From assembly GCA_013115125.1 (NCBI GenBank), contig JABANN010000399.1, positions 1-32,742 on the forward strand: DNA of 32,742 bases, given 5' to 3'. Source of the DNA: Perkinsus olseni (Eukaryota). Under the pieces are notes generated by a model. The model saw nothing but the letters and a program-made list of their open reading frames with translations. It was not told where the DNA came from and searched no databases. Positions within the stretch are counted from its first letter, which is position 1. The number at the start of each line of letters is the position of its first letter. This document shows, in pieces, positions 1 to 7,458 of the stretch. A program made the position numbers and the translations under genes.

Positions 1-71
1 ATCTTGGCTCAAGGTAAATATCAGGTCCGCTCGCTAGGCTGCAGCCGAAAGGTGAATGCCAGTGACGACCC
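1..71 (+). ncRNA. Spliced-leader RNA gene, copy 1 (5'-truncated by the window edge)
   Basis: 1-13 ATCTTGGCTCAAG is the 3' part of the SL exon, followed by GTAAAT. 1-221 is identical to 1940-2160. The 3' end is estimated from the intron stem-loop. Confidence 0.85.
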
Positions 72-221
72 TTGTTGTATATCATATAGCATGGACTATA
101 TCAGTCACCCCGTGACCCCCTGGACAACGTTTTATGCAAGCGTAGTGATTCAACGATGAGTGCAATCTGACAGGGGCGAGAATCCACGCGAGGGAAACAT
201 TGTCCAGAGGGTGCGGGGTTG
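1..221 (+). repeat. 221-bp direct repeat, copy 1 (SL RNA gene plus 3' flank)
   Basis: Reads identical to 1940-2160 (offset 1939); the sequences diverge after ...GTGCGGGGTTG. Confidence 0.95.
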
Positions 222-330
222 GAGCACTTGTGCGCGTGGCTTGCACGACTGCGCTGCATCACTCACGACACGCTCTGGCTCTCCGTGGAGCCGACTTACG
301 CTCATATCCGAACTTTATTGATTCCGTACT

Positions 331-403
331 TGACAGCAGCAGGAATCGAACCTGGGTCTTTTAAATGATAGGCGTGAAGACTAACCGCTGCGCTACAATG
401 GAA
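331..403 (-). pseudogene. Degenerate tRNA-like element (Asp/Glu-like, ATC at the anticodon position)
   Basis: Minus strand reads TTCCATTG-TAGCGCAGCGGTTAG (A box)...CT ATC AT...CCAGGTTCGATTCC (B box); 73 nt long. Acceptor and anticodon stems do not pair properly. Confidence 0.7.
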
Positions 404-560
404 GCGAAGCAGCTAACACCGTTAGCGACGACGCGGATTCTGATCGGCGATTCATTCTCGAGTCGGAGCTCTTCCATCCCTGAGTGCCGTCGCTCACCAA
501 CTCCTCTGACTCTGCGCAGAGCCTGGTCTGCTCATTTCGGTACATTGCCGACTCCGTACT

Positions 561-633
561 TTCCGACCCCGGGGATTGAACCTGCGCCCTACGAGTGATA
601 GCCGAGGATTCTAACCATTACGCTACGGTGGAA
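561..633 (-). pseudogene. Degenerate tRNA-like element (Glu/Asp-like, ATC at the anticodon position)
   Basis: Minus strand reads TTCCACCG-TAGCGTAATGGTTAG-AATCCTCGG CT ATC AC TCGTAGGGCGCA-GGTTCAATCCC-CGGGGTCGGAA. The acceptor stem pairs only with a bulge. It is offset exactly 230 bp from the first element. Confidence 0.72.
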
Positions 634-694
634 AGGTTGGCGGCCGATGACCCCCATGCGCAGCGACTTCGCAACATGGCATTTTCTCTATCAA

Positions 695-980
695 GCTGCG
701 TGAAATTTCGTCTTCCCCTTTCATGCCAGCTGCGCATTTCGCTTTCATCACTCATAGTCTATCATAGAGCGTCACCTGCACGGCAAATTCGCTTTCGTCT
801 CACTCGTCCACACAACACGATCAGCGTGCGTTGCTCTTTCGCGCAATCACAGTCAATCATAAACGAGGGTCTGCACGGCAATTTCGCTTTTATCGCTCAC
901 ACTCCCTCACAGTCTGCACACCGAGTTCGCGTTCACCTCCCACAGACTCTCACGATCTGCAGCCGGACTTCGTTTTTTAA
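695..980 (+). repeat. Degenerate ~43-bp minisatellite (CTGC-N4-7-TTCGyTTT...CTCAC)
   Basis: Units start near 696, 730, 776, 871, 914 and 957; e.g. CTGCACGGCAAATTCGCTTT (776) vs CTGCACGGCAATTTCGCTTT (871). Confidence 0.6.
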
Positions 981-1644
981 AGTGAAACTCATGTTCTTTC
1001 ACACACGCTCACACCCCATCAGTCGTCCCGACGAAGGGTCTTTCTCAGACGAAATTCGGAAGAAGTGGTATGCAGGAGTACTGCTCGATACCACATGATG
1101 TGGTCCACATCTCCCACAAATTGGCCGTAGGGTTATGCACCGACCATTTAAATGACCGTGTCACCGTCAGTTGGCTTCAATCCTCTCACAATTTGACGAC
1201 TTATGACTGCTTTACCTCGTTGCCCAATACATAGGGTGACTGGTGACACAACATGTAACGAGAAGAGATATCATATATATACCTTTCATTTTGAATCTCT
1301 GTGTCACCAATCACCACGACATCCAATTCCTAGTCATACAAATGACTTTCTCTCTCACGGGCCCTTACATTCAGCATCATCATGGGTGACACAGTGCCTT
1401 CTGCATCACAACCTGCACCATCCTTAGCATACCACTCCCCACTCAACGCACCGGACTTCTGGACAACATGGACTCTCGTAACCCATTGAGTTCGGCGATG
1501 GCTATGGCTGCGAGGCACGTGAAGTCAGAGATGGTGAGGGAATGCGTTCGAGCGGATAGAAAGGCAGTAGTTGGGAATAGTGCCGACATCAACTCGAGAT
1601 TGATTGCTGCGCGGTGGGGGAGGTCCAGGGAGGTGGTCGCCCGG

Positions 1645-1655
1645 AGAATCGAACC
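1645..1655 (-). promoter_or_regulatory. Pol III B-box-like motif
   Basis: Minus strand GGTTCGATTCT. 1646-1660 (GAATCGAACCTGGGT) is identical to 343-357 in the first tRNA-like element. Confidence 0.5.
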
Positions 1656-1831
1656 TGGGTGGGAAGTCGGAGACGCGCATGACAAGATATCGGCCTGGGA
1701 CGAGTCGGAACAAGCTGGAACAGGCAGACGTAGGAACTGATGGTTCTGGAGGCATGAGCGAACCGGACCTCGCGCAAGCCAAAATGAATAGATCACGAGG
1801 AGATAGTCTGTGGCGAGAAGTGAAGTCTGTG

Positions 1832-1842
1832 GGAATCGAACC
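1832..1842 (-). promoter_or_regulatory. Pol III B-box ~90 bp upstream of, and divergent from, the SL RNA gene
   Basis: Minus strand GGTTCGATTCC is a perfect match to the GGTTCGANTCC consensus. Confidence 0.55.
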
Positions 1843-1930
1843 AGCGCAAGATTCCATACACAATATAATATTGTGTGCGCGCGGGTATTTTATGCTACCA
1901 GCACGACCACAACCTAGACCCCTATAGGTT

Positions 1931-2010
1931 ACCGTAGCCATCTTGGCTCAAGGTAAATATCAGGTCCGCTCGCTAGGCTGCAGCCGAAAGGTGAATGCCA
2001 GTGACGACCC
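1931..2010 (+). ncRNA. Spliced-leader (SL) RNA gene, copy 2; exon 1931-1952
   Basis: ACCGTAGCCATCTTGGCTCAAG (Perkinsus 22-nt SL; the dinoflagellate SL is DCCGTAGCCATTTTGGCTCAAG) is immediately followed by a GT donor. The intron folds into a stem-loop (1963-2009) capped by GAAA. The 3' end is approximate. Confidence 0.92.
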
Positions 2011-2160
2011 TTGTTGTATATCATATAGCATGGACTATATCAGTCACCCCGTGACCCCCTGGACAACGTTTTATGCAAGCGTAGTGATTCAACGATGAGT
2101 GCAATCTGACAGGGGCGAGAATCCACGCGAGGGAAACATTGTCCAGAGGGTGCGGGGTTG
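1940..2160 (+). repeat. 221-bp direct repeat, copy 2
   Basis: Identical to 1-221. Confidence 0.95.
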
Positions 2161-4094
2161 CTCGACAATGCCGAAGGTCGAACCTGATACAGGACATATT
2201 ACCACGATACAGGAGAGTAATGTTCATTCTCCAGGAACGTCACCCGAAACCCGATGAACTTCATCGCTTCATCAGATGAAGCGTATGCGCATCGAATGAA
2301 ATGCCATGATTATGAACGACACCCACATAAGGAAAGCGTGGTAGCTCACCTCGACCAGATAACACCTCACTTGGCAGCAGTGAATAGCGGAAACCAAGCG
2401 TCGGTGGCCACATATTTCTTTTGCTCGATAGTCAGGCTATCCATTGTCCATAGGGGAAAAGCTCAGGTTTCTGAGTGACTAGGCGCTAGGTTCGCACGTA
2501 CAGTTGTAAAGAGAGGTTGAGGACAACCGGCCTACCTCAAACACGGTTGAGGGGAGCCCCCAGTAGCGAGTCACTACTCCTGTATAATGTTCACGCGCAC
2601 TCGCTGCCTTACTTAGTCTTGAAGATACTGTAGCCGATATCGTCGCACATACCACGGAGACCATTCTTGGGCAAGCCGCGCCTGCTGGCTTCGTGGACCA
2701 TATCGATAAGCGTGCTGCGCGGCACTACAGTACCTAAATGAGCTGCTTTGTATTCGTCGTTTTGCCGCACCCGACGCATATCTCGCGGACATTCTAAGCA
2801 TGACGCGTAACGAGCGAGTGGGATACAACGAAATTATAGGACTGATGGGGACTTCCACCGCCGCGGGACTTAAGTGCTCGTTGTCAGGGCGGAAAAGGAA
2901 AACTCCATCCGACATGGTAGCGATTCGAATCTGACGAGCAGCAATCCCCGACAGAGAGAGTACAGCAGGACTCACCAGAGAGATCGGGTTTCTTGTCATT
3001 CCGGTTTCCCAGTTCCACTCGAAGTGATAGGGCAGCATAAACGTGGAGAGGGAGCAGGTACACATCTTTTTGACCGAGTTCGGGAAGTTCAGCGCCTACA
3101 AATTTAGTTCACACTTCAACTCGGTCTGATCTCCTATGCCAGACGATGACTGGCTGAAATGGGGTCACTGCGCGTGCTGACTCACCACGCGCGCGCATAC
3201 GAAACAAACCATGTTGTGCAACCATTCTAGGCCGAGCGCCAAACTTTCAGACTGGGTGGACTCCACCCCTTTCGACCCAGTGGGCGCAGTAAGGCCTTTA
3301 GTAAGCAAAGAATATCCATCCCAGGAGAATACCCCACGATAGTACTTCCATGCTGATTCCATGCCCGTGCTCCATGCCATTTAACTCCCAGGCAGAGCTG
3401 AGTTACCATCGCATGAAGAAATGCGGAGATGATTCGGGGTGCATTAGATAAGGACCATTCAGCCCTCCGTCACAACTATACCCAACGCTTCCACATTCAC
3501 CGTTACTCAGAATAAAGTACACCATCTAATTCCATCCTAGAACTCGTCGTCGTGCAGAGCTCACGAGTCGTGTGCAGTCGAAGTTCCGAGACAGTCGGCG
3601 TGCATCTGGTCATATATCTCGTCATCTAACAGGAAGTTCCCAAACTGGAGTACGCAGTTTACACTACGGTGGTTTCCAGAGAAGGACTCCCCGGAGTGTT
3701 GGACTCGTATTCAGGCAACACAGGTAGCCTTATTTTCGTGGAGACTAGTTGGCCCGTGAGGGGGCTTCATCAGCTATCCCAATTAGGGTTCCTACGATCA
3801 TCCGTCGGGTGGCATCTTTACTGATCGCTCAGTCAACCACGCGCTTATCCAGATCGTAGATGATAATTATCAGCGAGAAATACGGAATGATTAACCGACC
3901 GAGGCCCCGCAGGGACTGTCATAAGTGTGACATACTCATCGGACTCCAACACATATGGTACATCATGCAAATACCGAGTACTGGGCGCGCTTCAATGGAC
4001 TCATAAGCATCGGATCGACTTACTCATACGACATACCAATCAAGAAAATAGAAATACGATATCATGCAAATGGGATGCTTCCGATAGGGTCGAT

Positions 4095-6417: not shown

Positions 6418-7458
6418 CTAAATCAGCCACATGCTGCCGAGGAAGATTTCATCCTCCTTCCTATCCTCGTACTCATAGACTATCCGACCACTTCTGAGCA
6501 CATGCACATTGTTTGTGACAAAACCTTCGAAGTCCGCCGAGGTGTGGAGTATGACACCGACAAGAACATCTATCACGTGCACCCGTAGAGAGTGAGATAG
6601 AGATGTTGCAGCGACTAGGCCGACCTTGTCAGGAATAACGCAGCAATCCAACAGCGGCTGGCCGCTCGAGAATGATAGGGTGCTACCGTTCACTTGCATA
6701 TAGAGGATACCACGGTTAGAGTAGAAGTTGTATGCACATTGCCAACTCTCCGACGAAACGAAAACATCCAAAGAGTACGTCGACTCAGGTTGTGCGGGTC
6801 GAGAAATTCCTTCACCACCATGTGGCGTCGCATCTCGTGAACGGAGTCGGCCCATTAGAGCAGAGAAAGGGTCCTTGTGCATTGGCAGAGCGTTGAACCA
6901 AAAGTACCACGCAGATGACGGCGAATAAGATTCCGAGGAGCAGAAACGGCACTCAGCTCGAAAAGTGAGACAAAAGAGGTAGCCGCCAGAGGCTAGAACC
7001 CTACCATCAAAATCGATCGGAATAGATGCGATCTCTTCATTCGAATTGCAAGACCACCTCCGTAGTTTGGGCTCGTCCTCAACTTTGTAATAAACTATTC
7101 CGTTGTGATGCAGTACCGAAGTAACCGGCAATCCAGCAGGTAAGCTCATCAGGTGAGTATCCCCCGATGACATATCATGATTTAGAATCCGATCGTCGGA
7201 ACTCCGGCAAACCGCTACTGCATCATTCCCAGTACCACTGCCTATAATGCTCATGGAGGATGCCCACGGATCGGAATGAGGTCGGGTGAAACTCGTAGGC
7301 GAATGAGACTTCGTATAGCGCCAAATGGTTTCCCTGATCCCTAGGAACCCTTCATCAATTATGGAAGACAGCAATCCGATTCTCATAGCCTCTGGCTCGC
7401 GTCTCAATTGCAGAGGATGAGCTTTGGGCACCTCAGGAGCTGAGGGAATGTTGGGCAT
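6418..7458 (-). CDS. Hypothetical protein, ~346 aa, apparently intronless
   Basis: Long ORF; first ATG at 7458 (the track's 7470 start is TTG). Possible beta-propeller-like segments; no family recognised. Confidence 0.7.
   Translation of the reverse strand: MPNIPSAPEVPKAHPLQLRREPEAMRIGLLSSIIDEGFLGIRETIWRYTKSHSPTSFTRPHSDPWASSMSIIGSGTGNDAVAVCRSSDDRILNHDMSSGDTHLMSLPAGLPVTSVLHHNGIVYYKVEDEPKLRRWSCNSNEEIASIPIDFDGRVLASGGYLFCLTFRAECRFCSSESYSPSSAWYFWFNALPMHKDPFSALMGRLRSRDATPHGGEGISRPAQPESTYSLDVFVSSESWQCAYNFYSNRGILYMQVNGSTLSFSSGQPLLDCCVIPDKVGLVAATSLSHSLRVHVIDVLVGVILHTSADFEGFVTNNVHVLRSGRIVYEYEDRKEDEIFLGSMWLI

Follow-up and report, generated by a model that had tools for sequence, protein, structure and literature searches.

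Organization of the SL RNA gene unit

The left end of the window, i.e. the whole stretch of 32,742 bases analysed, was found to contain an SL RNA gene in a tandem unit of 1,939 bp, with four B-boxes lying within the spacer. Positions 1-221 and 1940-2160 are 100% identical at a spacing of 1939 (repeat family D1), and a joint from 2160 to 222 was present in contigs of two sequencing runs (X6 and X7), i.e. the unit closes on itself. The features of the region are as follows.

1-221, plus strand: end of the preceding tandem unit (last 13 bases of the SL exon, SL intron and downstream stretch), identical to 1940-2160
330-403, minus strand: E1, decayed Asp-type tRNA gene relic, with A-box-like stretch 385-395 and B-box 342-352
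561-632, minus strand: E2, decayed remnant of a Glu-type tRNA gene and paralogous to E1, with A-box-like stretch 615-625 and B-box 572-582
1639-1682, minus strand: E3, T-arm-like fragment and possible relic of a tRNA 3' half, with B-box 1645-1655 and a 15-mer identical to E1
1832-1842, minus strand: E4, orphan consensus B-box, 89 bases ahead of SL +1
1858-1876, no strand: inverted repeat, its 9-base arms flanking a 1-base loop, located after E4 and ahead of the shared proximal region
1880-1930, plus strand: proximal upstream region (-51 to -1), the sole upstream part common to other SL-bearing contigs and a candidate core promoter
1887-1897, minus strand: weak A-box-like stretch inside the shared proximal region, with 2 mismatches to TRGCNNANNGG
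1931-2012, plus strand: SL RNA gene, with exon 1931-1952, GT donor 1953-1954 and 3' end near +81/+82 in TTGTTGT
2160-2161, no strand: boundary at which the tandem array gives way to unique flank, placed by the repeat comparison, the joint from 2160 to 222 and X6 record 10, which leads from 2117 on into a contig of 30,254 bases

The exon, 22 nt in length, is identical to the L-type SL of Perkinsus marinus printed in PMC9399869, and together with the GT donor and a tandem unit in the range of 1-2 kb it marks the gene as a Perkinsus L-type SL RNA gene. Its 3' end was placed from published transcripts of 80-83 nt. No T4 run occurs between +31 and +138, the first being at 2069-2072 (+139), and no sense-strand B-box follows the gene between +41 and +125, where the best match has 3 mismatches. 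An A-box-like stretch with 1 mismatch extends across the exon and donor at +14 to +24. Searches of the whole window against Rfam gave no match at the gathering score; at E<=10 over positions 1-3000, the only other RNA gene match in the spacer was to tRNA-Sec, and stop-to-stop open reading frames in the spacer were either short or of low complexity.

B-box motifs of the spacer

The preliminary description had placed B-boxes on the minus strand at 342-352, 572-582, 1645-1655 and 1832-1842, and all four were borne out, reading GGTTCGATTCC in E1, GGTTCAATCCC in E2, GGTTCGATTCT in E3 and again GGTTCGATTCC in E4, which has the same letters as the E1 box. With 100 shuffles of the 32,742-base window as background, the strict pattern GGTTCRANTCC had 3 matches (two of them belonging to these four boxes) against a shuffle mean of 0.09, and the relaxed pattern GGTTCRANNCY had 8 against a mean of 0.77; none of the 100 shuffles reached either count. 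Of the eight relaxed matches, four lie in bases 1-1,939, for which scaling the window mean gives an expectation of about 0.05, and the remaining ones, at 6889, 18997, 24444 and 27898, showed no tRNA likeness when checked. That the motifs are chance matches is thus scarcely credible; E3 and E4, with little or no tRNA likeness outside the box, would fit such an origin, but the excess over the shuffles argues against it, and for E1 and E2 it is already refuted by their full-length alignments with real tRNAs, described below.

Judging from the letters shared among them, the four boxes did not arise independently of one another: E1 and E2 are paralogues with a common 3' flank, and E1 and E3 have an identical 15-mer (repeat family D4), so that the uniform orientation of the boxes is largely explained by duplication. 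Among the sequence variants listed for contigs of the same organism, none lay inside the four boxes; 58 further variants stand outside this list, and no conservation is claimed. T-stem pairing is 3-4 of 5 in E1 to E4, whereas of 13 real tRNAs of relatives 12 have all 5 pairs. Only one T4 run per unit was present on the minus strand, 496, 726 and 1,799 bases past E1, E2 and E3, respectively, and 47 bases past E4.

Relics of tRNA genes: E1 and E2

Alignment of E1 with the real tRNA-Asp(GTC) of a relative's contig (L014) gave a score of 48, compared with a shuffled maximum of 31, and E2 aligned end to end with the real tRNA-Glu(CTC) of contigs L013 and L014 with a score of 59, compared with a shuffled maximum of 28. 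The two can also be aligned with each other, sharing the 3' flank AAGTACGGA(A/G)TC. In tRNA genes, the A box (consensus TRGCNNANNGG) and the B box (consensus GGTTCRANNCY) are spaced by about 44 bases; in both E1 and E2 the boxes have 0 mismatches to these consensus sequences and are 43 bases apart. However, pairing is disrupted in the acceptor, anticodon and T stems, and neither element has a Pol III terminator shortly 3' of it. Of the properties of a functional nuclear tRNA gene, E1 and E2 therefore have the box spacing but neither the cloverleaf nor the terminator. ARAGORN found 0 tRNA genes under default settings and with introns allowed; the 75 and 120 calls made across the window at -ps80 and -ps70, respectively, were treated as noise and set aside. 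The general tRNA model RF00005 had no match in 300-680 at E<=10, nor, at that threshold, did any tRNA model match E2. The sole covariance-model match of E1 was tRNA-Sec, which scored 18.2 bits where the gathering score is 47, and a selenocysteine tRNA was ruled out by this score, the lack of a variable arm and several broken pairs. On these alignments, E1 and E2 are full-length, duplicated sequences derived from Asp/Glu-type tRNAs, with broken cloverleaves.

The boxes of E1 and E2 are perfect while the tRNA body has decayed, which could mean selection on the boxes. At about 70% overall identity to real tRNA, however, their retention does not appear to be clearly above chance.

Intact boxes at canonical spacing might also mean that E1 and E2, which lie 1,300-1,600 bases upstream of the SL gene, are still transcribed by Pol III, giving tRNA-like non-coding RNAs or antisense spacer transcripts with a role of their own. 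X7 contigs spanning most of the spacer, with spliced joints in the flank, would agree with this, although the type of that run is a guess and contigs reveal neither the starts, the ends nor the strand of transcripts. Given a next T4 run as far as 496 and 726 bases away, the broken stems and the lack of any tRNA model match at the general model or ARAGORN call, we consider such transcription improbable.

E3, E4 and the proximal upstream region

Outside E1 and E2 the likeness to tRNA fades. The tRNA alignment score of E3, 32 against a shuffled maximum of 29, is marginal and its A box has 3 mismatches, so E3 is possibly, and at best, a marginal relic of a tRNA 3' half. E4 showed no tRNA likeness outside its box (score 24, shuffled maximum 31), and has 3 of 5 T-stem pairs. 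As had been described, the closest B-box lies about 90 bp upstream of the SL gene: E4 occupies -99 to -89, ending 89 bases ahead of +1 (1931), and the next boxes are at -276 and beyond -1,300. The weak A-box-like sequence reported at 1890-1900 was likewise confirmed (reverse complement TGGTAGCATAA), with its best register at 1887-1897, and its grading as weak is fair because it has 2 mismatches to the consensus. The E4 B-box and the weak A box are 55 bases apart. From the positions of this A-like box and of SL +1, a tRNA-like start would lie near 1905-1910, about 20-25 bases from +1.

E4 is a consensus B-box without a tRNA body, a point against its origin by plain decay of an entire tRNA gene, and is closer in kind to the orphan B-boxes that adjoin SL genes in relatives.

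Other SL copies of the same organism

The SL gene is also present in contigs of X7, X8 and X12, which differ from the window upstream of 1880, with the same letters in all three, and one X7 contig with the SL gene diverges upstream of 1928. These copies therefore have no E4 at this place, where 30 letters of each diverging end were seen; a box further upstream in them is possible. The idea that a B-box is kept upstream of other SL copies is thus not borne out for E4, which lies outside 1880-1930, the only upstream stretch shared among the copies. Contigs of X8 and X12 cover 8 and 5 of 30 bins, respectively, and nothing was drawn from the remainder. The summed contig word depth in X6 was 363,121 for the SL exon bin, 2,298 for 1742-1821 and 92.5 for the unique flank; these values are not copy numbers, but they hint that the unit in the window is one of many SL-bearing sequences.

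SL genes of environmental dinozoan relatives

In the environmental dinozoan contigs, SL genes are embedded among real tRNA, U6, 7SL (SRP), 5S, U1-U5 and U3 genes. A strict sense-strand B-box was present at +66 to +74, 5-15 bases past the T-tract, in 5 of 11 distinct SL genes, and a downstream B-box with no more than 1 mismatch in 7 of the 11, the other 4 having no recognisable box (2-3 mismatches); because the 11 genes are spread over 8 contigs, of which some are related, these counts are not independent. The 14.8-kb contig L031 has only two strict B-boxes on either strand, each following one of its two SL genes. In the orphan boxes after these genes the motif is kept while T-stem pairs number 2-3 of 5, and the distance from the A-like box (+14 to +24) to the B-box is 52-60 bases. 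A run of T4-6 ends all 11 genes; within L031 such a T run also ends U6, SRP and 5S, whereas U1, U2, U4 and U5 do not end in one. The dinoflagellate SL exon itself contains TTTT, a potential Pol III stop. The B-box linked to SL genes in the relatives is on the sense strand and downstream of the terminator, whereas the boxes of the window are antisense and upstream.

These data bear on the possibility that TFIIIC acts at the B-boxes, E4 in particular, to promote, enhance or insulate SL transcription, the SL RNA being made by or with the Pol III machinery. The recurrence of the downstream box, its exclusive placement after the two SL genes of L031, and T-stem pairing that suits a site in DNA better than an arm of an RNA are consistent with this, as are the T-run ends, which resemble those of U6, SRP and 5S. 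The 52-60 bases from A-like box to B-box fall within the 30-90 bp of tRNA genes given in PMC5855946, and precedents exist in SNR6 (same source) and in the trypanosome U3, U6 and 7SL genes (PMC2943599). Against it, the window's SL gene has neither the downstream sense box nor the T4 run, its upstream boxes are all antisense, at -89 to -99, -276 and beyond -1,300, other SL copies have no E4 at this place, 4 of the 11 relatives' genes are without a recognisable box in a set that is not independent, and TTTT occurs within the dinoflagellate exon. Furthermore, SL RNA must donate a cap to mRNAs, and in the systems studied it is synthesised by Pol II, as in nematodes. For trypanosome SL RNA, PMC2943599 states the same. 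We regard working TFIIIC sites as possible but rather doubtful.

A wider form of this idea, which we consider unlikely, is that dinoflagellate and perkinsid SL genes are generally TFIIIC-dependent, with an A-like box at +14 to +24, in the exon and donor that are universally conserved, and a B-box outside the RNA. Short-intron forms would have the sense B-box after the T-tract, in an SNR6-like arrangement, and the Perkinsus L-type would have taken it from tRNA relics such as E4.

Origin of the boxes and the promoter question

We consider it probable that the B-boxes are the remnants of a small tRNA gene cluster inside the 1,939-bp tandem unit of a Perkinsus L-type SL RNA gene. Dinoflagellate and perkinsid SL RNA genes would habitually adjoin small-RNA genes (tRNA, U6, 7SL, 5S and U snRNAs), and tRNA genes captured in the SL repeat may have lost their tRNA function and now be decaying. 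Passive binding of TFIIIC to the A and B boxes of these relics may persist. Transcription of the SL gene itself would depend on the proximal region of that gene (-51 to -1), perhaps together with exon sequences.

The preliminary description had proposed that the boxes may act as an extragenic Pol III promoter or insulator of the SL gene. This reading is supported in part: the boxes derive from tRNA and are oriented divergently with respect to the SL gene, both box types have been retained at canonical spacing in E1 and E2, and SL genes of relatives are closely associated with tRNA genes and an orphan B-box. Other features do not support it: E4 lies outside the shared region from -51 to -1, a tRNA-like unit built on E4 would start only about 20 bases from SL +1, T4 is absent from +31 to +138, and the relatives' box is sense and downstream rather than antisense and upstream. 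A promoter role of the boxes for the window's SL gene is not supported.

Taken alone, the window is ordinary, with tRNA pseudogenes caught up in the tandem repeat of a small-RNA gene. The recurrent orphan B-box after the terminator of environmental dinozoan SL genes surfaced in the comparison, and may have been mentioned earlier in the primary dinoflagellate SL gene papers (Zhang et al. 2007 and 2009) or in Hearne and Pitula 2011. In the literature searched, no paper on the transcription of perkinsid or dinoflagellate SL RNA genes was found, and the word "promoter" has 0 occurrences in the texts of PMC3101222, PMC9399869 and PMC6616646. The available text of PMC3101222, which does not include the upstream alignment of its Figure 1, has no tRNA-like sequences, A/B boxes or promoter, "tRNA" appearing in a mitochondrial context only. 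The recurrent downstream box offers a testable handle on the polymerase machinery that makes the RNA capping every mRNA in dinozoans. If the TFIIIC-dependent reading were true, the donor of every mRNA 5' end would be made or organised by the Pol III machinery, and such an SL RNA would be unlike all SL RNAs so far studied.

Comparison with known systems

According to Zhang et al. 2011 (PMC3101222), the L-type SL repeats of P. marinus have units of 1-1.8 kb with uniform upstream sequence, one record holding two units, Perkinsus SL RNA is 80-83 nt in length, and S-type SL genes cluster with U2 and U4. The window's unit is similar to these L-type repeats in the 22-nt exon, GT donor and kilobase-scale unit, but differs from them in having only TTGTTGT as its T tract at +81.

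In trypanosomatids, U3, U6 and 7SL are driven from the A/B boxes of tRNA genes that lie upstream in divergent orientation (Nakaar et al. 1994, as described in PMC2943599), and trypanosome SL RNA is transcribed by Pol II (same source). The window has in common with this the presence of tRNA-derived A/B boxes ahead of a small-RNA gene and on the other strand. The unit nearest the SL gene, E4, is divergent and has a consensus B box, but only a weak A box and no tRNA body; both boxes together occur in E1 and E2, 1,300-1,600 bases upstream. In the trypanosomatid arrangement, the companion is a functional tRNA gene whose distance is fixed and the target is a Pol III gene, whereas the window has pseudogenes or a lone box, and its SL target has no T4 terminator at the mapped end. 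In trypanosomes about 95 bp separates the starts of the tRNA and small-RNA genes, as against about 20 bases between the E4-based tRNA-like start and SL +1.

In Saccharomyces cerevisiae, the B block of SNR6 (U6) is downstream of the coding region (PMC5855946). It is the relatives' SL genes, not that of the window, that resemble SNR6, in the internal A-like box, T-run terminator and sense B-box; no such downstream box follows the window's SL gene. Even in the relatives the A-to-B distance is 52-60 bases compared with about 200 bp in SNR6, and TFIIIC binding there is putative.

Orphan TFIIIC sites (ETC) and tDNA insulators are B-boxes without a gene body. E3 and E4 are like them in this respect, a likeness of the motif alone, and differ from them in belonging to a many-fold reiterated repeat. 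E1 and E2 correspond instead to tRNA pseudogenes as generally known, in their full-length likeness to tRNA, broken stems, duplication together with flank and lack of a terminator; they have neither the poly(A) nor the target-site duplications that mark SINEs, and have been amplified by the tandem unit rather than by dispersal.

The four B-boxes as probable tRNA gene relics

A pattern search of the window recovered the four B-box motifs of the preliminary description (342-352, 572-582, 1645-1655 and 1832-1842), all on the minus strand. The strict consensus matched three times, against 0.09 expected, and the relaxed consensus eight times, against 0.77 expected, a count reached in none of 100 shuffles; chance is a very improbable source of the boxes. 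Half of the relaxed matches (4/8) fall inside the 1,939-base unit carrying the spliced-leader (SL) RNA gene, and the other four, farther along the window, showed no tRNA likeness. Each box, with its minus-strand surroundings, was aligned to real tRNA genes (ARAGORN) from related environmental loci, a set of 14 entries, 12 of them distinct (the L013 pair duplicates entries already present under L014).

Best tRNA matches of the four B-box elements
E1, 330-403, minus strand: tRNA-Asp(GTC), score 48 versus a shuffled maximum of 31
E2, 561-632, minus strand: tRNA-Glu(CTC) end to end, score 59 versus a shuffled maximum of 28
E3, box at 1645-1655, minus strand: 3' half of tRNA-Gly, marginal, score 32 versus a shuffled maximum of 29
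E4, box at 1832-1842, minus strand: no match beyond the box, score 24 versus a shuffled maximum of 31

E1 also aligns with E2, the 3' flank AAGTACGGA(A/G)TC being common to both, and E3 and E1 have an identical 15-mer in common (repeat family D4). Because of these duplications, the common orientation of the boxes does not represent four independent observations. As working tRNA genes, E1-E4 were ruled out by ARAGORN, which called no tRNA at any of them with or without introns; by Rfam, with no match at the gathering score across the whole window; by T-stem pairing, 3-4 of 5 pairs versus 5 of 5 in 12 of 13 real tRNAs; and by the position of the single minus-strand T4 run of each unit, which lies 47 bases past E4 and 496, 726 and 1,799 bases past E1, E2 and E3, respectively. 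The general tRNA model gave no match at E<=10 in a 381-base search, in which tRNA-Sec alone scored (18.2 bits versus a gathering score of 47). Judged from sequence, the alignments and the failed tests together indicate that E1 and E2 are duplicated tRNA pseudogenes, E3 a fragment and E4 an orphan box. E1 and E2 each have no mismatch to the A-box and B-box consensus, with boxes 43 bases apart; that they are Pol III-made non-coding RNAs, with the T4 run at the distances listed, is an unlikely reading.

Directly after that T4 run, the minus strand at 1761-1779 reads CATTTTGGCT, a 10-base match to the dinoflagellate SL at its core and Sm-like site, which may be due to chance or may be a relic of another small-RNA gene.

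The SL gene and its tandem array

The window starts inside an SL RNA gene: positions 1-221 are identical to 1940-2160, at a spacing of 1,939 (repeat family D1), and contigs of two sequencing runs from the same organism join 2160 to 222. The window therefore holds the last one-and-a-bit units of a head-to-tail array ending at 2160. The sole complete SL exon (1931-1952, plus strand) is followed directly by GT and agrees at all 22 positions with the P. marinus SL printed in PMC9399869. According to Zhang et al. 2011 (PMC3101222), L-type SL genes lie on 1-1.8 kb records, one with two units, their upstream sequence is uniform, and transcripts are 80-83 nt long with a T-tract end. In the window gene, +81 and +82 fall within TTGTTGT, and no T4 run occurs from +31 to +138. 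The text of that paper gives the L-type Sm-like site as AUUCUGG, versus AUCUUGG in the window and in the 22-nt SL of PMC9399869, probably a slip in the text.

A spliced minus-strand gene adjoins the array (2161-2612 and beyond). Contigs of run X7 contain the joints 2181->2348 and 2470->2536, with CT..AC ends, and contigs of runs X8 and X12 pass from about 1987-2183 directly to letters equal to the window from 2613 onward, implying a minus-strand GT..AG intron at 2184-2612. This gene's last exon and the distal portion of the final SL unit apparently overlap.

Over 222-2600, we compared contigs of four runs with the window. Contigs of X7, X8 and X12 contained the SL gene with few differences, and upstream of 1880 had the same letters, unlike those of the window; one X7 contig was unlike the window upstream of 1928. 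Other SL copies, from the window organism or samples containing it, thus share only -51 to -1 with the window copy. E4, at -99 to -89, lies outside this part, so that the proposed B-box upstream of other SL copies was absent at that place, as judged over loose ends of 30 letters each; these copies may have boxes farther upstream. One X8 contig (depth 6) joins 1652 to 1931, setting the E3 box against SL +1 with E4 and the proximal region gone, a low-depth variant of little weight.

SL genes of relatives

A pattern scan for the SL exon plus GGT yielded 10 metagenome loci, nine on bacterial-MAG contigs, and three in a viral collection. We retained genes starting with A and having a GTA donor, left out L001-L006 (starting with T and lacking an SL-RNA-like intron), L011, L015, L017 and L020-L022, and merged overlapping loci into the full contigs L031-L034. 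Thirteen genes were found, one an exact duplicate, leaving 12 distinct, including that of the window.

Sense-strand B-box after the T tract
Strict: L007, L008 (second gene), L009, L010, L031
One mismatch: both L033 genes
Two mismatches: L008 first gene (broken by a 5-base insertion), both L032 genes
Three mismatches: L034, window

All 11 relatives' genes had a T4-6 run at +54 to +65, and in five the strict box lay at +66 to +74, 5-15 bases past this terminator. On both strands of the relatives' 36,473 bases there were 18 strict matches: eight in tRNA genes, six after SL genes (five distinct) and four elsewhere (one palindromic site counted twice, one site upstream of a tRNA and one in SSU rRNA). 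In L031 (14.8 kb) the sole two were those after its two SL genes. The orphan boxes after relatives' SL genes keep the motif with just 2-3 of 5 T-stem pairs, a pattern more consistent with a DNA site than with an RNA arm.

Small-RNA gene neighbourhoods of relatives
L031 (1-14791): U6, SL and SRP RNA on one strand; U1, U2, U5, U4 and 5S on the other
L032: two SL genes, six tRNAs, U3, U6
L033: U3, SRP, SL, U6, SL
L034: SL in the spacer of an rDNA unit
L008, L009, L010: SL among tRNA genes

In L010, SL +1 lies 52 bases past the end of a tRNA-Val, and in L031 T-run ends occur on the SL, U6, SRP and 5S genes and on none of U1, U2, U4 and U5. The small-RNA gene clusters of L031-L034 are eukaryotic, of dinoflagellate type, and these contigs, catalogued as bacterial MAG sequence, look like mis-binned eukaryotic DNA. 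The two L008 genes (minus-oriented, 428 and 2000), 1,572 bases apart, have the exons ATTTTGG and ATTCTGG, and the related L009 has ATCTTGG; several SL variants therefore occur in one uncultured lineage. In the viral collection, the dinoflagellate SL plus GGT occurs without a change in L020 (2000) and L021/L022 (one giant-virus MAG contig, SL at 2001-2023), at a point where GC rises sharply from 16% in the preceding 500 bases to 47-48% downstream; roughly 115 bases farther on, an ORF of 351 or 461+ aa begins. The pattern suggests either that a giant virus took up SL-tagged cDNA from its host or that the assembly is chimeric.

Origin and possible role of the boxes

The boxes are probably relics of tRNA genes: tRNA genes adjoining the SL gene, as in relatives, would have been amplified along with it and left relic boxes, any role of which for the SL gene is putative. 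That the boxes, or E4 at least, are working TFIIIC sites is a weaker prospect, for which the recurrence of the SL-linked B-box among relatives, the resemblance of +14 to +24, within the conserved exon and donor, to an A box (one mismatch) and the precedent of the B block 3' of the SNR6 coding region (PMC5855946) can be cited; however, the window gene lacks both the relatives' downstream-box geometry and a terminator, E4 is missing from its place in other copies, the dinoflagellate exon contains TTTT, and SL RNA requires a cap. Our search of the accessible literature found no paper linking B boxes or Pol III with dinozoan SL genes, and promoters were not discussed in the SL papers covered.

The trypanosomatid-like architecture first proposed for this gene fits poorly, given the missing T4 run and the spacing: a tRNA-like unit that paired E4 with the weak A-like box at 1887-1897 would begin about 20-25 bases from SL +1, unlike the divergent tRNA-box arrangement of trypanosomes, with roughly 95 bases. 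That divergent arrangement is described in PMC2943599, according to which the trypanosome SL RNA is a Pol II product, a further point against TFIIIC sites.
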